Positions 1 through 7,740 of a stretch of 7,740 bases of DNA are shown one piece after another (position 1 is the stretch's first letter; each line of letters begins with the position of its first letter). The notes beneath the pieces were generated by a model. The model saw only the letters and a program-made list of their open reading frames with translations, did not search any database and was not told where the DNA came from. Where the stretch lies: positions 1-7,740 of IMG/VR virus record IMGVR_UViG_2875722834_000001. One strand, given 5' to 3'. This stretch comes from a virus (Duplodnaviria; Heunggongvirae; Uroviricota; Caudoviricetes). A program made the translations under genes and the position numbers.

Positions 1-170
1 ACCTGCACTCCAATTATTGACCAGTTCCTCACCGCGCCTCCCTCTCCGGCGGCGCGAATGAACATCTTATTGGCTATCACATCCGACACAAATGTTGCCA
101 TCCCATTGCTTAATCGAATAAAAATCAGGCTACATGGGTGCTAAATCTTTAACGATAACGCCATTGAGGC

Positions 171-200
171 TGGTCATGGCGCTCATAAATCTGGTATACT
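171..200 (+). promoter_or_regulatory. Candidate sigma70 promoter for ssrA: -35-like TGGTCA (171-176), 18-bp spacer, -10-like TATACT (195-200)
   Basis: Hexamers read directly from the sequence. TATACT ends 14 nt upstream of the mature tmRNA 5' end at 215, consistent with a short 5' leader removed by RNase P. The -35 match is weak. No ORF of 60 aa or more lies in 1-214, so this stretch looks intergenic. Confidence 0.4.
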
Positions 201-214
201 TACCTTTACACATT

Positions 215-577
215 GGGGCTGATTCTGGATTCGACGGGATTTGCGAAACCCAAGGTGCATGCCGAGGGGCGGTTGGCCTCGTAAAAAGCCGCAAAAAATA
301 GTCGCAAACGACGAAAACTACGCTTTAGCAGCTTAATAACCTGCTTAGAGCCCTCTCTCCCTAGCCTCCGCTCTTAGGACGGGGATCAAGAGAGGTCAAA
401 CCCAAAAGAGATCGCGTGGAAGCCCTGCCTGGGGTTGAAGCGTTAAAACTTAATCAGGCTAGTTTGTTAGTGGCGTGTCCGTCCGCAGCTGGCAAGCGAA
501 TGTAAAGACTGACTAAGCATGTAGTACCGAGGATGTAGGAATTTCGGACGCGGGTTCAACTCCCGCCAGCTCCACCA
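215..577 (+). ncRNA. ssrA: tmRNA (SsrA, transfer-messenger RNA), mature 363-nt form
   Basis: Starts GGGGCTGATTCTGGATTCGACGGG and ends GGTTCAACTCCCGCCAGCTCCACCA (tRNA-like acceptor/T-arm with CCA). The internal tag reading frame at 304-336, GCA AAC GAC GAA AAC TAC GCT TTA GCA GCT TAA, encodes ANDENYALAA-stop, the E. coli/Shigella-type tag. The whole gene matches my recollection of E. coli ssrA. Confidence 0.95.
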
Positions 578-585
578 AATAAATC

Positions 586-620
586 AAGGGGTTACGTAAA
601 AGCGTAGCCCCTTTTTCTTT
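586..620 (+). terminator. Intrinsic terminator downstream of ssrA
   Basis: Left arm AAGGGGTTACG (586-596) pairs with right arm CGTAGCCCCTT (603-613), with one G-U pair, around loop TAAAAG, followed by the T-tract TTTTTCTTT to 620. Seen directly in the sequence. Confidence 0.6.
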
Positions 621-635
621 GGTAGTGGCGGCAAA

Positions 636-674
636 ATGGCGACAGACTTTTGCGTCCATCTTGCCTGTCGCCAT
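636..674. repeat. Perfect 10-bp inverted repeat ATGGCGACAG (636-645) / CTGTCGCCAT (665-674) with a 19-bp spacer; the octamer CCATCTTG is also repeated directly (656-663 and 671-678)
   Basis: Read directly from the sequence. It lies between the ssrA terminator and the RBS (AAGAGG 689-694) of the 701-1183 gene. Possible operator, recombinase or IHF arm site, or RNA hairpin. Confidence 0.5.
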
Positions 675-700
675 CTTGAAATCATGCAAAGAGGTTTCAC

Positions 701-1183
701 ATGGAAGAACTTCACTTTGTTTACATCAATGCAAATGGTCGTATCGGAGTTCACTCAATACAGAGCATCAGTTATAGCGAAAATCATATACAGGGCATTT
801 GTAAGAACACCGATCGAATAAAAACCTTCCGAAAAGACCGCATTCTTAAACAGTACGATTCACCAGAACAAGCCATTCAGGAATGCGCGTCATTCCTCCC
901 CGAAAACTACTCACACCTCACTAAGCAGTCTGGTCCGAAAAAAAATACATTCGATGTGTGTTTCACCGGATTTAAGAAAGCAGATAAAGAAAGATTGGTT
1001 GATAAGGCGAATGAACAAGGATTAACGGTAAGAACCTCTGTAACCCAAAGCCTTCAGATGCTCTGTTGCGGTTACAATGCAGGCCCATCAAAAGTATCGG
1101 CAGCCAGGATGAAAGGCACAATCATCATAGATGAGCCTGGCTTTATACATTTTCTTGAAACGGGTGAGATCCCAGATGAATAA
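701..1183 (+). CDS. Hypothetical 160-aa cargo protein: N-terminal WYL-like domain fused to a C-terminal BRCT-like domain
   Basis: Strong RBS AAGAGG 6 nt upstream of the ATG at 701. The N-terminal half contains RIKTFRKDRI, resembling the R-x-F-R-x-D-R-I hallmark at the end of WYL domains. The C-terminal half (NTFDVCFTGF ... GLTVRTSVTQSLQMLCCGYNAGPSKVSAARMKGTIIIDEPGFIHFL) resembles the BRCT fold pattern of NAD-dependent DNA ligase (LigA) C-termini. The region is visibly AT-rich compared with the adjacent phage core. Domain calls are by eye and need HMM confirmation. Confidence 0.7.
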   Translation: MEELHFVYINANGRIGVHSIQSISYSENHIQGICKNTDRIKTFRKDRILKQYDSPEQAIQECASFLPENYSHLTKQSGPKKNTFDVCFTGFKKADKERLVDKANEQGLTVRTSVTQSLQMLCCGYNAGPSKVSAARMKGTIIIDEPGFIHFLETGEIPDE

Positions 1184-1211
1184 AAACCTGCCGTAGCAGG
1201 TTCTCTTTCTC
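1176..1211. terminator. Bidirectional intrinsic terminator between the convergent 701-1183 gene and ogr
   Basis: Perfect 7-bp stem AACCTGC (1185-1191) / GCAGGTT (1196-1202) around loop CGTA. On the minus strand the stem is followed by TTTTTATT; on the plus strand by CTCTTTCTC. Confidence 0.55.
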
Positions 1212-1428
1212 AAAAATTCATATGCCCCTGACCACCTGGCAATGGATGTGGAGGAGCAGTAGCAATCAGTGCGGGTGTCACAATAAACCGGACCACTGTT
1301 TCATGGGTAACAAAAGTGCTCCCGCAGTTAATATTTTGGCACTGGCAGTAACGCTCTTTGGTGCTTTCAGTTACTTGAAAACTGCTCCTTGTGTGTGCCG
1401 CATGACCACACTTTGGACAATTCATCAT
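1210..1428 (-). CDS. ogr: Ogr-type zinc-finger late-gene transcriptional activator (P2 Ogr / 186 B / P4 Delta family)
   Basis: The ORF 1210-1473 contains MMNCPKCGHAAHTRSSFQVTESTKERYCQCQNINCGSTFVTHE..., with the C-x2-C ... C-x4-C spacing and overall resemblance to P2 Ogr (about 72 aa). The upstream 16 codons of the six-frame ORF are probably not translated, so the start is set at the internal Met at 1428; the start is uncertain by one codon (1425 or 1428). Confidence 0.85.
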   Translation of the reverse strand: MMNCPKCGHAAHTRSSFQVTESTKERYCQCQNINCGSTFVTHETVVRFIVTPALIATAPPHPLPGGQGHMNF

Positions 1429-1496
1429 ATCCAGATCCCTACCTTTGCTATCAGAATCATTGTAATGATACACAAAATATCAACATTGAGAACACT

Positions 1497-2597
1497 TTAT
1501 TCCATTTCAAGATCATCAATCTTCACTTCGAGTTCAATACTGGTCGTAAAACCATTATCCGGGCTGACGGTATGAGTCAGAGTCGTAATGGTCCATTCCG
1601 CATCATCTATCGGTTGTTTAAAGCCACTAACTTTCACTGGCATTTCCGTGTAAAGATCTGCCCGCCCTTCCGCCAGTTGTAGCGAGAATGACGCAACGCC
1701 GCGTTGCAGGCGTTCCCACTGCATTTTCGCTGCCCGTTCAGCGTTGCTCCGGTTGGCATAAGTGCGATTAAGTACCAGCACGTTTTCATCCGTACCCACC
1801 AGGTAATCGCCCTGCTTCGCTTCCGGCTCTTTCTTCTGCTTCTTAGTTCTGCGCTTACGCTTCACCGTGGTACTTTCTTTCTTCGCAGGTTCGCGGGTAT
1901 GCAACCAGCTGGCAATTACGCCCGTGTAGGCTCCGCGATCTGCCAGGGTAAATCGGTGACTGTCGCCGTCCTTGCGTGTGATAGTGATCACTGGCAGAGG
2001 TTTACCAGTGGCGCTTTTGCCCTGCCCCTGCCGGATGAATAACAGATTGCCATTTTTCACCGACGCGATGGCACCGTACTGTCGCGCCAGCCGCATCAGA
2101 AAACTGCCGTCACTCTCATTAGTCTGGTCTATATGCTCCACGGGCTTATCCGACAGGTCTTTACCCAGTGCCATCTTCAGCTTGTGCCGCGCGGCTATTT
2201 CCTTCACCACTTCCCCGACGGTGGTCTTATGCCACGATTTTTCACGGCGGGTATTCAGCGTTTCCCGAAAATCAGCACTTCGCGCCCGAATAGTCAGGCG
2301 GTCCGGTGCGCCAGTGTGTTCAATCTCGTCCACTGTGAATGCCCCTTTCGGGAAAAGCGGCTGCCCCTTCCAGCCCAGCGCCAGCGTAATAACCGCACCA
2401 CGGCGCGGCAGCACGATTTTTCCGTCAGCGTCATCCAGCTCCAGATCAAGCTGGTCCGCTTCAAAGCCCCGGTTATCCGTCAGCGTCAAACTCATCAGGC
2501 GGTTATCCAGCACAGTGGTGATATCCCTGCCCTCAATACTGATGCTGAATGCGGGAGTTTTGTTGCCTTTGTTAAGCAGTTCAGAGCTGAAATTCAC
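1497..2597 (-). CDS. D: P2 gpD-like tail protein (late control D family), 366 aa
   Basis: Size and position match the P2/186 order T-U-D-ogr. Its start overlaps the stop of the upstream U gene by 4 bp (ATGA-type coupling). GC-rich codon usage typical of the phage core. The identity rests on synteny, not on a recalled gpD sequence. Confidence 0.85.
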   Translation of the reverse strand: MNFSSELLNKGNKTPAFSISIEGRDITTVLDNRLMSLTLTDNRGFEADQLDLELDDADGKIVLPRRGAVITLALGWKGQPLFPKGAFTVDEIEHTGAPDRLTIRARSADFRETLNTRREKSWHKTTVGEVVKEIAARHKLKMALGKDLSDKPVEHIDQTNESDGSFLMRLARQYGAIASVKNGNLLFIRQGQGKSATGKPLPVITITRKDGDSHRFTLADRGAYTGVIASWLHTREPAKKESTTVKRKRRTKKQKKEPEAKQGDYLVGTDENVLVLNRTYANRSNAERAAKMQWERLQRGVASFSLQLAEGRADLYTEMPVKVSGFKQPIDDAEWTITTLTHTVSPDNGFTTSIELEVKIDDLEME

Positions 2598-3079
2598 GAC
2601 AGCAGCCCTCCCACCGTTTTACTGATATCGCTTAAGGCAGACGTTGCCGTGTCCTGCAGATTATTCAGTTGCGCACTGAGATCACCGAACATATCGGACA
2701 GGGATTCATCCACTCGTTTGAGCGACAGGGTGAACTCAATCCGGCGCGGCATACCGTCGCGGAAAAACTCCGTTTTAGTCTGATTCAGTCCCTCAATCAC
2801 ATACATGCCGTAAATCGTGCCGCTGCCTTCAATCAGGGGCCATGCTTTCCCCTGTTCTGCCATCTGCTCCAGTGCCAGCAACGACAGCCTGCCGCCTGTT
2901 ATTTCCGGCATAAGAACACCGGAAAGCGTCAGCATGTCGTTTTCCGGTCCCAGAAACTGCGTGGACGGACGTCGGTTTACCCGACTGTTTGCCGCATGTC
3001 GCCAGCTGCGTTGATACTGCAGTTCCTGATACGGAACGGTGCGCAGCATAAACACGTACAATCCCAGCACCATCATCAT
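2594..3079 (-). CDS. U: P2 gpU-like tail protein, 161 aa
   Basis: About 160 aa, located between the tape-measure gene and D, with 4-bp overlaps at both ends. The start is one of three consecutive Met codons (MMM). Confidence 0.85.
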   Translation of the reverse strand: MMMVLGLYVFMLRTVPYQELQYQRSWRHAANSRVNRRPSTQFLGPENDMLTLSGVLMPEITGGRLSLLALEQMAEQGKAWPLIEGSGTIYGMYVIEGLNQTKTEFFRDGMPRRIEFTLSLKRVDESLSDMFGDLSAQLNNLQDTATSALSDISKTVGGLLS

Positions 3080-4476
3080 GCGTCGTATCCCCCCTGATCG
3101 CTGTAGTTACTCCTGGCTTTTGCCTTCAGCCTGCGTTCACGTTCATCAAGCTGGCGTGCCACCTCCCGCGCAATATCCTGCGCACTTTGTCCTGGCTGCG
3201 TCTGAATGATGATCTGCGTCGGTGCCTCAATCCGTTGAACGAGCGGCACAGTGGCTGCGCGACTCACAATTGCTTCTCCACCTTTCGCGGGAAGTGCCAA
3301 GGGGTGCAACGGTGGAAGCTCTGCTGGCGCGGCAGCAACGCCCATCATTCCGGCAACAACGGCAGCCAGTGCAGCTGTATTTCTCCGGCTGGTCACATTT
3401 GCCGGGCCGTTAACAATTTCCGGCCCGTTTTCACCGACGATGCCAAACTGCCCGCGCGGGATATACCCGCCGCTGTCATACATCCCCGCAAAGCCATATC
3501 CCCATGATGGAAAACCACCCGATGGCATCATCACTTTACCGTCTGCATTCACCGTCGCAGGTTGCTGACGCGTCACGCTTTCCGGCAGTTTTGCCTTTGC
3601 GGCCTCTTTACTGACAATGCCGAGCTTCTCCAGCAACCAGGAAACGCCGGATTTCAGGGAGTCCAGCGGATGCATGACCATATTCAGCCCTTCCGCCAGT
3701 GCCTCCCCGAATCGCCGCCCCATTGCCGCTGCGCTCTGCAGTTCGGCAGAGGTCGACTTAACGGGCGTCAGCAGATCAGTAAACCAGCCCCACAGCGCCT
3801 GCACTTTGTCGCCAATCCACTGGAACACGGGCTTAAGCGGTTCGAACGCTGCACTGATGGGACCTGCCGCCGCTTTGAATCCTTCCACCACGCCACCGAG
3901 AAATGCGGTGATGGGTTGCCAGTATTTCCAGACAACCAGCGCCACGCCCGCCAGTGCAGTAACCACAAGACCTATCGGACTGAGCAGAGCACCTAACAGA
4001 CCAGATATGGCATACAGGGCAACGCGCAGCATCGCCAGTGGACCAGATGCCAGTACTCGCAGCACCGTGCCTGCGGCGGCCAGTCCACCGCGCAGTACCG
4101 CCAGAGGATTCATAAACATCACAGCAACAGCACGTAAACCGGATACCGCACCTGCAGCAACACGCCCGATCTCTGCGGTTGCACTCATGACGTAATGTGG
4201 CAGTTTCTCTTTTGCCACCTCATTAATCGGTACACATGGCAGGCAGTGAATCTGAGCCAGAAAACCATCTACCAGCGTTGAATCTTCAGTCAGATCGGTA
4301 AGCAACCAGATTTCTGGTGCAGTTAATAAATGAGGTTGAGCTGGGTTCAGCTTGTTCCGCAGAATCTGCACATTCATGCCTGCACGTTCTGCCAGTTGCA
4401 CCAGGTTGTGGCGCAGTGCAAAAGCCCTACAGGCTTCATCGAAATGCGGATGTTTGGAAATCTTGTAATCAAACAT
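3076..4476 (-). CDS. In-frame chimeric ORF (466 aa): CII-like regulator N-terminus (about 100-120 aa) fused to the C-terminal part of a tail tape-measure protein (gpT-like); probable deletion remnant
   Basis: The N-terminus [45 protein letters not shown]...[25 protein letters not shown] matches what I recall of phage 186 CII. The rest is Ala/Gly/Val-rich with hydrophobic segments typical of tape-measure proteins and sits directly upstream of U and D. Good SD (AAGGGGGG) before the ATG at 4476. A full gpT in P2 is about 800 aa. Confidence 0.75.
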
Positions 4477-4509
4477 GGTGCCCCCCTTAGAAAGTTCCCA
4501 TAATTGAAC

Positions 4510-4752
4510 TTACTTACCAACAATGACTCGGAAGTTGGAATGACCGAGGGATTCACGGACCTGATCGGTTTTGTACATCAGATAACGCAGGCTTACGCGA
4601 CCTTTGTTTTTTTCTTTCTTGACCATGTACTTAGCAAGTTGACCATGGTGAATTTTTTGGTAAACAGAGCCGCGGGAAATACCCTCCCACTCTGCGAACT
4701 CTGCAGGCGTAGCCATCTCTTTTGGTACACGAATTGAAATATCAGTACTCAT
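4510..4752 (-). CDS. Small HTH DNA-binding protein in the Apl/Cox position (putative excisionase and switch regulator), 80 aa
   Basis: It is the first gene of the operon leading into the CII-like gene, divergent from the cI-int operon, as for 186 apl or P2 cox. The segment TPAEFAEWEGISRGSVYQKI looks like an excisionase-type helix-turn-helix. Assignment is mainly by synteny. Confidence 0.65.
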   Translation of the reverse strand: MSTDISIRVPKEMATPAEFAEWEGISRGSVYQKIHHGQLAKYMVKKEKNKGRVSLRYLMYKTDQVRESLGHSNFRVIVGK

Positions 4753-4873
4753 AGTGCAGTATCTCTTACTTTGTGTGCGTGTTAGTTCGTTTTAGCCCGT
4801 CTCTTAAACTCTCACATCAAGAGACATGAAGACATTACGATCTTGATTCAAGATTGTCAAATGGAGATTACCA
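4753..4873. promoter_or_regulatory. Lysis-lysogeny switch region between the apl-like gene and cI, with candidate promoters and operators
   Basis: On the minus strand there is a consensus -35 TTGACA (plus coordinates 4855-4860), a 17-bp spacer holding the perfect 15-bp palindrome ATCTTGATTCAAGAT (4840-4854), and a -10-like TAATGT (4832-4837). A 7-bp inverted repeat GTCTCTT (4799-4805) / AAGAGAC (4819-4825) and several TCTCTTA-like repeats (4761-4810) are also present. The cI RBS is GGAG at 4863-4866. The plus-strand cI promoter may lie within the start of the apl-like gene (TTGAAA at 4734-4739), as in the face-to-face promoters of 186 and P2. Confidence 0.55.
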
Positions 4874-5506
4874 ATGTTAAACATCAGAATGGGTTCCGAT
4901 ACGGGAGGTAAGGCAGCTATTGAAAGGCTGCTTGAGGCTTATGGATTCACAACTAAGCAGGCATTAAGCGAGCACCTGAATGTCTCAAAAAGCACTATGG
5001 CAAACAGAGTGTTACGTGACAGCTTTCCTGCTGACTGGATAATTCAGTGCGCACTAGAAACCGGTGTTTCGTTGCTTTGGTTAGCTACAGGACAGGGAAG
5101 CATGAAAGGAGGAGCTGAGCCTGAGAAAAGTTCTCATAATGAGAACAAACAAGCAATTAAACCGTTATCCAAACTCATAACTCCAGCTATTCCTAAAGGA
5201 ACCCTGGAGAATGGACAACTCAGTATTGATGAAGAGATTTTCCTAGACCACAGCATATTACCTGCAGATTATGAAGAATCGATGTTCTTAGAAACCCCTA
5301 CTGATTGTTATCTCATCGATAAATCAATTAAACAGGTCAGCAATGGATTCTGGCTTATCAATATTGATGGAATGATTATTGTTGCAAAAATCATGCGGAT
5401 TCCCGGCAATAAGATTGTAGTAAATCAAGATGAAGCGTCTTTCGAGTGCTCTACTGATGATGTGGAAGTTATTGGGCGTGCAGTCAAAGTAATAAAGAGT
5501 ATCTAA
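4874..5506 (+). CDS. cI: Phage 186 CI-like immunity repressor, 210 aa
   Basis: The motifs LEAYGF, CALETGVSLLWLATGQG, GFWLINIDG, RIPG, FEC and IGRAVKV align with what I recall of 186 CI (CEAYGF, CALETGANLQWLLTGEG, GLWLVDIEG, KLPG, FEC, LGRVVGV). It lies immediately upstream of int on the same strand, as in 186. Confidence 0.85.
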   Translation: MLNIRMGSDTGGKAAIERLLEAYGFTTKQALSEHLNVSKSTMANRVLRDSFPADWIIQCALETGVSLLWLATGQGSMKGGAEPEKSSHNENKQAIKPLSKLITPAIPKGTLENGQLSIDEEIFLDHSILPADYEESMFLETPTDCYLIDKSIKQVSNGFWLINIDGMIIVAKIMRIPGNKIVVNQDEASFECSTDDVEVIGRAVKVIKSI

Positions 5507-5508
5507 AC

Positions 5509-6525
5509 ATGACTGTCAGAAAACAGCCAAACGGTAAATGGTTGTGCGAGTGCTATCCCAATGGACGCAATGGCAAGCGCGTGCGTAAGCAATTTGCTAC
5601 GAAAGGCGAAGCCATTGCTTTTGAAAGCTTCACAATGGAAGAAGTGAACAAAAAACCATGGCTGGGGGAAAAGGAAGATCGGCGACACCTATCAGAATTA
5701 ATTGAGCAGTGGTATTCCCTGTATGGTCAAACACTCGCAGACCCCAAGCGCCTCATGGCGAAACTTAGAATTATCTGTAATGGTCTAGGCGATCCCATCG
5801 CCTCAGAACTAACAGCCGGTGACTTTACGAAATACCGCGAAGCACGGTTAAAAGGTGAAGTACGAAATGAAGATGGCACGCTTATGTCGCCCGTTAAGCC
5901 CCGCACGGTAAACCTTGAACAGCGCAATCTATCATCGGTGTTCGGTACATTAAAAAAACTAGGACACTGGTCAGCACCAAACCCGCTGGCAGGACTTCCG
6001 ACCTTCAAAATTACCGAAGGTGAGCTGGCTTTTCTTTCCGTGGACGAAATCAAGCGCCTGTTGGCTGCATGTGCTGAATCTCAAAGCCCGAGCCTACTAA
6101 TGATTGCAAAAATATGCTTAGCTACCGGCGCACGGTGGAGTGAAGCCGAAAACCTTCAGGGCCACCAAATATCGAAATACCGAATTACTTATACAAAGAC
6201 AAAGGGCAAGAAAAACAGAACAGTACCAATATCTCAAGATCTGTATCACGAACTCCCCAAAAACAGAGGGAAGTTATTCACGCCATGCAGAAAATCTTTT
6301 GAGCGTGCAGTAAAAAGAGCAGGTATTGACTTGCCAGAGGGCCAGTGCACGCATGTATTGCGCCATACATTCGCTAGTCACTTTATGATGAATGGCGGAA
6401 ATATTCTTGTATTGAGAGATATTTTAGGGCACTCAGATATAAAAATGACAATGGTCTATGCCCATTTCGCACCAGAACATCTTGAAGATGCTGTTACTAA
6501 AAACCCCTTATTTAACTTAAAGTGA
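5509..6525 (+). CDS. int: Tyrosine site-specific integrase, P2/186 family, 338 aa
   Basis: The C-terminal catalytic region HVLRHTFASHFMMNGGNILVLRDILGHSDIKMTMVYAHF carries the R-H-x-x-R ... Y signature of tyrosine recombinases; an upstream conserved Arg lies in LATGARWSEA. It starts 2 nt after the cI stop, suggesting translational coupling. Confidence 0.95.
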   Translation: MTVRKQPNGKWLCECYPNGRNGKRVRKQFATKGEAIAFESFTMEEVNKKPWLGEKEDRRHLSELIEQWYSLYGQTLADPKRLMAKLRIICNGLGDPIASELTAGDFTKYREARLKGEVRNEDGTLMSPVKPRTVNLEQRNLSSVFGTLKKLGHWSAPNPLAGLPTFKITEGELAFLSVDEIKRLLAACAESQSPSLLMIAKICLATGARWSEAENLQGHQISKYRITYTKTKGKKNRTVPISQDLYHELPKNRGKLFTPCRKSFERAVKRAGIDLPEGQCTHVLRHTFASHFMMNGGNILVLRDILGHSDIKMTMVYAHFAPEHLEDAVTKNPLFNLK

Positions 6526-6534
6526 TAAATAAAA

Positions 6535-7740
6535 ATGCATATTCAACAAGAACTCGATGAAGAACTTAATAATCTTTTTGACACTATTAGAAAAAAATCA
6601 AGTATTCGACCACCAATTGAGATTGAAAAAAACCTTACTTTGATAGATGACTTCGCTCTAAAATGCAGTAAATTCCGGGGTTGTTTAGTAGATTACATCC
6701 AGGAAAATGATAACAGGTTAAGTTTACGCTTGCGCAATAGACTTAGAGCTGTAGATATCATGCAGAAAGAAATCGTCTCGTGTTTAGAGTGTTTTTTATC
6801 AGGGGATATTAAGTCGGCATATGACTCATTTGAAAGTATGCTAGAGCCACGAACTATATCTCGTCATATTGAAAATATATGCATACCTCTTTCTGACTTA
6901 TGTAATGAAGATAAACCATTATTCCGCGTTAGAAAATCTGATACGCCACTTACATCAAGAAGAGATATGTTTCATATTCCGTTCAGTCAGCGTCACTTTG
7001 TTAGAGCACAGAGATTTTCAGTTGCTGGTCTACCCTGTTTATATTTAGGAACATCTCTTTATATATGCTGGAGAGAAATGGATAAGCCAGATTTTGATAA
7101 GCTATATATATCTGCCTACAAGATCGATAAAAATAATGACTCAAAGGTACTAAATATAGGACCTGATTTTTTATATAAACAGAGATCTATATTAGAGTCA
7201 AAAAGAAAGAACAAATATGATTTCAATACCAAACTCTCATATTTAGCACTTTGGCCTTTGATAATTGCATGCAATTATTTAAAAAAATATGACAATGCTT
7301 CCTTTGTACAAGAATATATTATCCCCAATCTTTTGATGCAATGGATCAGTCGGAACAGCAATGAGAATGTTGTTGGTATAGCCTACCGCTCAACAAAATT
7401 ACCTGCTAATGCCTTAGGTAGCAGAGGAATAAATGTGGTACTTCCTCCAAAAGTGCGTTACGAGGAGATGGCCAATAATGAATTTTGTCCAAATCTAGCG
7501 AAAATTTTCAAATTCACATTGCCTGTATCTTGGCAGGTCCTAAAAACAGTTGAGTACGTGCCTGAATCAGTTGCACAATCCGATCGAGAGAATCTCAGCA
7601 GAAGGCTACGAAGAAGAAAAAATCGTGAGCTAACAGGAAGCATAGATGATGAAATTTTGAACATCTATAATTTAACTGACTTTTATAAACTCGAAACTTG
7701 TATGGATGAAATTCAAGTATATGCCCATATTAAACCATGA
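6535..7740 (+). CDS. Hypothetical 401-aa cargo protein with a central RES-domain signature (putative NAD+-targeting toxin or defence effector)
   Basis: RFSVAGLPCLYLGTSLYICWRE gives Arg160-x9-Tyr170-x10-Glu181, and GIAYRSTKLPANALGSRGINVVL gives Ser286, matching the conserved Arg/Glu/Ser and their spacing in RES-domain toxins. There are long N- and C-terminal extensions, including the basic stretch RRLRRRKNR. The region is very AT-rich. The ATG is 9 nt after the int stop with no recognisable SD. The stop codon is at the last three bases of the window. Confidence 0.75.
   Translation: MHIQQELDEELNNLFDTIRKKSSIRPPIEIEKNLTLIDDFALKCSKFRGCLVDYIQENDNRLSLRLRNRLRAVDIMQKEIVSCLECFLSGDIKSAYDSFESMLEPRTISRHIENICIPLSDLCNEDKPLFRVRKSDTPLTSRRDMFHIPFSQRHFVRAQRFSVAGLPCLYLGTSLYICWREMDKPDFDKLYISAYKIDKNNDSKVLNIGPDFLYKQRSILESKRKNKYDFNTKLSYLALWPLIIACNYLKKYDNASFVQEYIIPNLLMQWISRNSNENVVGIAYRSTKLPANALGSRGINVVLPPKVRYEEMANNEFCPNLAKIFKFTLPVSWQVLKTVEYVPESVAQSDRENLSRRLRRRKNRELTGSIDDEILNIYNLTDFYKLETCMDEIQVYAHIKP

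Follow-up and report, generated by a model that had tools for sequence, protein, structure and literature searches.

The 7,740-nt stretch of IMG/VR record IMGVR_UViG_2875722834_000001 (positions 1 to 7,740, hereafter the window) ends with an open reading frame (ORF) for a 401-aa RES-like protein, which directly follows the integrase gene (int) of a prophage. Based on our analysis, this gene probably encodes a stand-alone, single-polypeptide immune effector of the RES superfamily, which would deplete nicotinamide adenine dinucleotide (NAD+) and would be the last gene of a cI-int lysogenic operon. Among the explanations considered, this immune-effector reading is the best supported, because the fold, the catalytic residues, the homology to the aRES defence proteins and the genomic context point to it. 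The gene, its parts and its operon are laid out as follows.

6535-7740, plus strand: RES-like ORF, complete, with an ATG start and 401 aa; the window ends with its stop codon (7738-7740).
6535-6909, plus strand: N-terminal domain (residues 1-125), a predicted five-helix bundle.
6910-7452, plus strand: catalytic core of the RES (ADP-ribosyltransferase-like) type, residues ~126-306, of which residues 191-235 are a variable insert.
6925-6933, plus strand: codons of R131-V-R133 (LFRVR), matching R182/R184 of aRES and the R27 region of the toxin MbcT.
7012-7077, plus strand: codons of R160...Y170...E181 (QRFSVAGLPCLYLGTSLYICWRE), matching R215/Y225/E236 of aRES.
7390-7434, plus strand: codons from S286 (YRST) to N300 (INVVL), matching S334 and N349 of aRES.
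7453-7737, plus strand: C-terminal extension (residues 307-401).
6526-6534, plus strand: 9-nt spacer between int and the RES-like ORF (TAAATAAAA), without a Shine-Dalgarno sequence.
4874-6525, plus strand: genes of the cI repressor (4874-5506) and the integrase (5509-6525), which, with the RES-like ORF as last gene, make up the inferred lysogenic operon.

The RES core and its flanking parts

Judged from sequence comparison, the RES-like gene is genuine and evolves under purifying selection, because homologues of 395-420 aa occur throughout Enterobacterales and comparison with a 90%-identical allele gives a ratio of nonsynonymous to synonymous substitution rates (dN/dS) of 0.13. This ratio is 0.07-0.08 in the core and 0.17 in the N-terminal domain. 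WP_001429732.1 and CARTA_33 of Escherichia phage Cartapus have the same sequence as the product, and this protein is also found in phage RE-2010. The Cartapus record labels it 'putative RES protein, NAD+ binding domain', and some homologues are named 'RES domain-containing' in UniRef and NCBI. The family comprises 2,689 clusters at 50% identity (E<=1e-3) from many phyla, and its members typically have 360-420 aa.

As reported, the key residues of MbcT are R27, R47 and Y58, and its motif is R47-E69-S126 (PMC6436930). In the 401-aa protein, the counterparts of R27, R47, Y58, E69 and S126 are R131/R133, R160, Y170, E181 and S286; Y58/E69 correspond to Y170/E181, and R47 is matched with R160 by motif position. 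The RES clade carries Tyr and Asn substitutions, and Asn is typical at the position of N300 (PMC9503650). Overall, the RES catalytic set, consisting of R131/R133, R160, Y170, E181, S286 and N300, is complete. An earlier sequence-only reading of this window had assigned R160, Y170, E181 and S286 to a 401-aa ORF, and all four residues are at the positions it claimed. They are invariant among 34 close homologues. Across 75 diverse homologues, R160, Y170 and E181 never vary and conservation of R131, R133 and N300 reaches at least 90%, while S286 lies outside the columns conserved at this level.

The protein has a RES/ADP-ribosyltransferase-like beta-sandwich fold. An initial AlphaFold 2 model, built with the 34 close homologues, was mediocre (predicted local distance difference test, 69) and was superseded by a later one. 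The predicted template modelling score of 0.92 for the structural model suggests one compact unit rather than tethered domains. The solved structural relatives are all toxins of toxin-antitoxin (TA) systems, with 144-250 aa, and a Foldseek search of BFVD gave no significant match. Moreover, RES is the sole recurrent Pfam match among the relatives, with 20 of the 34 close and 25 of the 75 diverse sequences and a best E of 6.3e-6. Ten diverse relatives score 13-22 bits on this profile, and the matches cover profile positions 2-136 of 157. The PHROGs families matched by the 401-aa protein are all of 'unknown function'.

The RES core maps to residues ~126-306, in line with the ~125 extra N-terminal and ~95 extra C-terminal residues noted from the sequence alone. 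Residues 1-125 form five confidently predicted helices, which are variable in sequence and free of Cys; G90, in the motif LSGDIKSAYD, is invariant. In structure comparison, this bundle resembles only generic bundles and sensor domains, and a Pfam hmmscan of residues 1-128 gave no match at E<=10. No MbcA-like or DUF2384 signal was found in the 401-aa protein, and a fused antitoxin was therefore rejected. Behind the core, residues 307-340 are conserved (C318, P319, W333 and Q334) and are probably part of it, and residues 341-401 are variable. The Arg/Lys-rich stretch described by the sequence-only reading is present (residues 350-366, 47% Lys and Arg), but it is not a conserved feature; the helix at residues 341-366 is the least conserved stretch of the family, with a majority fraction of 0.09.

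Some homologues carry a conserved C-terminal tail, GG(T/K)LAAE(H/P), at alignment columns ~437-447. The present allele stops at TGA-TAG-TAA, and the coding sequence of the tail (..GDILAAEH*) persists just downstream in another frame (LF82 locus, 14342-14376). Because it survives out of frame, the tail has been lost in this lineage through a frameshift or a stop codon. The alternative that such tails arise by read-through into a reverse-complemented, tRNA-type attachment (att) site was rejected; the right attachment site (attR) is co-oriented and lies ~120 bp farther on.

Comparison with aRES and other systems

As reported in a January 2026 preprint, aRES are stand-alone RES proteins of 300-600 aa, with representatives from E. 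coli UC5, K. pneumoniae S_34AVR and E. chengduensis GN04826 (Osterman et al., bioRxiv 10.64898/2026.01.28.702374). Such proteins give protection from diverse phages, arrest growth and deplete NAD+, yielding nicotinamide and ADP-ribose (ADPR)-1''-phosphate (ADPR-1P). The latter product evades the NARP1 pathway of phages, and point mutations in the predicted active site abolish defence (bioRxiv 10.64898/2026.01.28.702374). In the pattern typical of aRES, NARP1 is ineffective, and rescue comes from NARP2 or from NARP1 together with the Adpp phosphatase. With the sequences taken from Table S4 of the preprint, residues 176-357 of aRES UC5 align with the profile of the present family (hhalign, 86%, E 5e-6, 172 columns). 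The six residues mutated in aRES, R182, R184, R215, Y225, E236 and S334, correspond to R131, R133, R160, Y170, E181 and S286 of the 401-aa protein, and the motif grammar and spacing, LFRxR...R-x9-Y-x10-E...(K/R)ST...NVVL, are common to both. Additionally, the 401-aa protein is stand-alone, partnerless and within 300-600 aa, as aRES are, and relatives of both are found in defence islands. By this analogy, the RES-like gene in all likelihood works like aRES.

The two also differ. On the Pfam RES profile, aRES score 53-55 bits, compared with 11.9 bits for the 401-aa protein. The insert at residues 191-235 and the 95-aa C-terminal extension are found in the 401-aa protein and not in aRES. Furthermore, aRES UC5 has no match in genuine phage records of the searched collection, its one hit being a Salmonella genome contig, whereas in P2/186-like phages the present family is fixed. 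LF82 and B. subtilis are both missing from the list of aRES genes.

A mechanism can be proposed from homology to aRES and RES toxins. In the lysogen, the RES-like protein would be made at a low level and held inactive, and infection by another phage would activate it. The RES core would then cleave NAD+ with phosphate to nicotinamide and ADP-ribose-1''-phosphate. With the NAD+ pool emptied, the infected cell would be arrested and replication of the invader blocked, by abortive infection or dormancy. More speculatively, three parts may serve for sensing or autoinhibition, namely, the tightly packed N-terminal bundle, the insert at residues 191-235 and the C-terminal tail. They may take the place of both the Xre antitoxin of TA systems and the zinc-ribbon and HEPN_RES_NTD1 parts of aRES.

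RES-Xre toxins (MbcT, NatT, Res, VPA0770 and ParT of ParST) are single-domain proteins of 144-250 aa, encoded after an Xre/DUF2384 antitoxin. In contrast, the present protein has 401 aa, three extra segments and no antitoxin gene, and the sequence similarity is marginal (hhalign against the MbcT subfamily, 16%). SPbeta YopC (442 aa, named RES domain-containing at NCBI) belongs to the same family as the 401-aa protein, with 30.5% identity over residues 73-346; it is likewise prophage-borne and, at 22.4 bits, falls narrowly short of the Pfam RES cut-off. In contrast, YopC, an uncharacterised protein, is located in a giant prophage of a Gram-positive host, away from the int-att region. In SPbeta, yopB, a 75-aa Cro/C1-type helix-turn-helix (HTH) gene, directly precedes yopC (L003, 2776-4439), and this is the only HTH-RES-like pair seen.

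GAPS1 is a validated single-polypeptide anti-phage system of the PD-(D/E)xK type, which is thought to be both sensor and effector and which causes dormancy (bioRxiv 10.1101/2023.03.28.534373). In a sister ssrA prophage, a gene annotated as GapS1 family occupies the same slot, in the order int stop, 8 nt, gene, attR. However, the fold and chemistry of GAPS1 are unrelated (nuclease superfamily), and it has no sequence similarity to the 401-aa protein. The SIR2 proteins DSR1/DSR2, the TIR protein SpbK and NIR/DUF4062 follow the same logic, in which a sensor is fused to an NAD+-destroying domain and infection is aborted. Their catalytic folds differ, and the 401-aa protein is expected to yield another product, ADPR-1P instead of ADPR.

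The int-att slot and the evolution of the gene

The window holds a decayed P2/186-like prophage at ssrA, with the order ssrA, a 160-aa ORF (701-1183), ogr, gpD, gpU, a CII::tape-measure ORF, a Rha/Apl-like gene, cI, int and the RES-like ORF. It is identical over its whole length to E. coli HH107, where the arrangement is smpB-ssrA-[remnant]-ypjA, and the cI-int-RES-like ORF segment matches the intact Cartapus prophage of E. coli LF82 with 100% identity. Three further features belong to this context.

535-577, plus strand: core of the left attachment site (attL), which is the 3' end of ssrA (transfer-messenger RNA, 215-577).
701-1183, plus strand: second att-proximal cargo gene, 160 aa, 41.6% GC, between attL and ogr.
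3076-4476, minus strand: CII N terminus fused to the C-terminal third of the tape-measure protein, 466 aa, an internal deletion.

Relative to the intact Cartapus of LF82, this fusion represents a deletion of ~26 kb. Despite this loss, cI, int, the RES-like gene and the 160-aa gene are still intact in the remnant, which suggests retention of the cargo and immunity genes.

As described by the sequence-only reading, int is the upstream neighbour; it ends 9 nt before the RES-like ORF, and cI precedes it. The same reading had allowed for a partner beyond the window, and this can be dismissed: in HH107 and LF82, position 7740 is followed by ~120 bp of non-coding DNA, attR, a terminator hairpin and host DNA. 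attR is a copy of the last ~45 nt of ssrA, and the hairpin appears to be the native ssrA terminator, because it is placed just past the duplicated ssrA 3' end. An ordinary RES-Xre pair was likewise rejected, since the locus has no adjacent Xre-HTH/DUF2384 gene, with int upstream and attR downstream. No terminator-like site was found between int and the RES-like ORF, and a promoter scan gave 3 sites against 10 expected by chance. Expression of cI and int has been reported for LF82 lysogens (PMC9928086). Given this expression and the lack of a terminator between int and the ORF, the RES-like ORF is likely co-transcribed from the lysogenic promoter.

To describe the neighbourhoods, we used a viral set of the best 80 IMG/VR contigs and a synteny set of 80 genomic loci from many phyla. 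In 79 of the 80 viral contigs, a homologue directly follows a P2/186-type int, with gaps of ~1-46 nt and cI upstream. The gene is more AT-rich than the phage core, as had been stated from the sequence alone, with 34.6% GC (third codon positions, 28%) compared with 54-56% in the late genes; int has 45% and cI 41%. The idea that this marks a recently acquired moron did not hold up. Homologues of 43-100% identity share the int-att position in these 79 contigs, and all have 32-37% GC, which indicates that the RES-like gene is an old resident of the slot.

The alleles of 43-100% identity, to which those of SCU-115 (65%) and SopEPhi (47%) belong, stand beside integrases of 87-100% identity, mostly 90-94%. 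Synonymous sites of int are saturated (dS 1.1-1.5), which points to old lineages, while dN is 0.21-0.28 for the RES-like gene and ~0.04 for int. Allelic replacement, which the contrast in identity between the two genes might suggest, was rejected because int dS is saturated and the RES-like protein evolves ~5 times faster. Change in the protein is concentrated in its N-terminal bundle, insert and tail. Mosaic recombination was seen in one pair, in which the dS of the RES-like gene (0.36) is below that of int (1.08).

Based on the literature, the int-att region of P2-like prophages is a minor defence hotspot, with 3% of P2 systems in a 2026 survey of thousands of prophages (PMC13586616). The present slot has the features of such a hotspot: att sites flank it (attL at 535-577 and attR ~120 bp past the stop codon), and its cargo varies and includes a known defence family. 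In sister 186-like ssrA prophages, the int-attR slot carries a GapS1-family gene (L087, 4637-6163), an unrelated 352-aa gene or a 65%-identical allele. The 352-aa protein, WP_059320302.1 (L085, 4631-5689), is hypothetical and without a PADLOC match; by its position, it is a defence candidate. Elsewhere, the genes directly next to family members include those of type I and III restriction-modification systems, Avs2, DrmD, BrxH, PbeA and PDC-S39.

Only two local syntenies recur among the 80 genomic loci, namely, an enterobacterial cI-int-X arrangement and a four-gene module in Bacteroidota; a small HTH partner gene showed no recurrence in this set. The Bacteroidota module consists of an HNH endonuclease (~290 aa), a GHKL/HATPase_c_3 ATPase (~507 aa), a 220-aa protein of no family and the RES-like protein (365 aa). 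The RES-like gene is last (L034, 2811-6996, likewise L040, L043, L046, L051, L055 and L063), and the module may represent a system of several genes built on the same effector. In Klebsiella sp. R390 (L010, 5398-8255), the order is cI (189 aa), RES-like gene, int. In Citrobacter sp. FP75 (L006, 3794-7185), int and the RES-like gene are separated by an extra 375-aa gene of no family.

Alternative functions, implications and other cargo

Several observations weigh against the immune-effector reading. The N terminus of aRES consists of a CxxC...CxxC zinc-ribbon and HEPN_RES_NTD1 (PF18870), whereas the 401-aa protein lacks both and has the five-helix bundle instead. PF18870 scores 21.3 and 41.1 bits in the aRES positive controls, and it is absent from the 25 families listed for the 34 close relatives and the 8 families found for the 75 diverse relatives; when the family was aligned with aRES residues 1-175, hhalign gave a probability of 0.2%. 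Because the N-terminal domain is unrelated, the 401-aa protein is not an aRES as defined. The sequence-only reading had proposed a Pfam RES profile search, in which a match (PF08808, E=0.23) does exist, but at 11.9 bits, over residues 146-182 only, it falls below the gathering cut-off of 23.2 bits. PADLOC and NCBIfam gave no match for the protein. Searches of PDB chains with the protein and two family profiles found nothing in the RES core and returned only helical-bundle noise from the N-terminal domain. Likewise, hhalign against MbcT alone or an MbcT-family alignment gave a probability of 14-16%, on the Y...E motif only. NAD+ depletion cannot be taken for granted, because ParT, which also has the RES fold, is an ADP-ribosyltransferase that acts on protein. 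Moreover, the ORF has no Shine-Dalgarno sequence, and whole-segment dN/dS shows no pervasive positive selection. In RNA sequencing of LF82, int reads are ~1/3 of cI reads, and the published table omits the RES-like gene (PMC9928086).

The low scores themselves are normal for the RES superfamily, because canonical RES toxins find one another at only E 0.1-0.5 (phmmer), and the MbcT subfamily is too narrow for an informative comparison.

Other functions were weighed against these data. An RES-fold ADP-ribosyltransferase that modifies a macromolecule, protein or nucleic acid, for defence or host manipulation and without depleting NAD+, has precedents in ParT, which acts on Prs, and in DarT and CmdT, which act on nucleic acid. 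We regard this as unlikely, because the closest relative of known activity, aRES, is an NAD+ phosphorylase; in addition, the basic helix is the family's least conserved segment, and the region-3 position has the RES-type Asn (N300) instead of the catalytic Glu of transferases. A TA-type addiction toxin that stabilises the prophage, with its antitoxin built in as the N-terminal bundle or supplied in trans, for example, by cI, would fit the solved relatives, all of which are TA toxins, and the position of SPbeta YopC behind the HTH gene yopB. An HTH repressor, cI, also heads the operon in the enterobacterial phages and directly precedes the gene in the Klebsiella sp. R390 locus, and the RES-like gene survives together with cI in the decayed prophage. 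Even so, such a toxin seems quite unlikely to us.

A role in the service of the phage, either as a counter-defence enzyme against NAD+-derived immune signals or as an establishment or induction factor, would agree with the phage-encoded, int-linked position in 79 of the 80 viral contigs, and ADP-ribose-handling enzymes are common as phage counter-defences (PMC9503650). However, the gene is in the lysogenic cI-int unit and not in an early-lytic unit, most family members reside in non-phage defence islands of many phyla, and the slot is shared with a GapS1 defence-family gene; this role is very unlikely. An inactive relic without present function is scarcely credible. The prophage is indeed degraded, as the CII::tape-measure fusion attests, and the gene is rare in E. 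coli (11 of 5,426 complete genomes). In contrast, the ORF is intact and 99.8-100% identical in DNA among these 11 genomes, the protein is identical in Cartapus and RE-2010, dN/dS is 0.13, and, in the 75 diverse sequences, 3 of the 7 catalytic residues never vary and another 3 are conserved in at least 90%.

Returning to the immune-effector reading, we tentatively propose that the family could form another class of stand-alone RES immune proteins, second to aRES and distinct in structure, composed of a helical bundle and a RES core and numbering thousands of clusters from many bacterial phyla; the 401-aa protein would be its founding example. In Enterobacterales, the class would be built into the cI-int-X lysogeny operon of P2/186-like phages. 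The fast-evolving surfaces of the bundle, insert and tail might sense phages, and alleles might differ in the invaders that they recognise. This class was probably missed by the aRES detection pipeline. Compared with aRES, what is new is the other, putative sensor or regulatory module, the phage-borne location in a lysogeny operon and a large family unseen by annotation tools; the principle was already set by aRES. If the family is active, NAD+-phosphorolytic immunity yielding ADPR-1P would be wider than the ~4% of genomes given for aRES. Temperate phages would then carry such immunity and express it with the repressor, as a lysogenic-conversion immunity that escapes the common NARP1 counter-defence of phages. 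Moreover, the family amounts to a natural domain-swap series, with the same RES core, a front domain unlike that of aRES and many alleles beside a near-constant integrase. This series could be used to study phage sensing by single-protein NADases and the way in which they remain silent when no antitoxin is present. A large RES branch has also been missed by curated thresholds and current defence finders.

Other cargo was observed in the same prophages. The C-terminal half of the 160-aa protein at the attL side has a BRCT match below threshold (19.5 bits) and a match to the C terminus of the PADLOC candidate PDC-S48 (E 1.8e-7). As reported, its gene, labelled 'putative exonuclease', is the most expressed Cartapus moron in LF82, at 15 times background (PMC9928086). 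In the intact Cartapus of LF82, the portal-DinI interval (3696-5604), a classical P2 defence hotspot, encodes a DUF4145 protein and two hypothetical proteins, and two of these three genes are strongly induced under the RNA sequencing conditions (PMC9928086, supplementary table).

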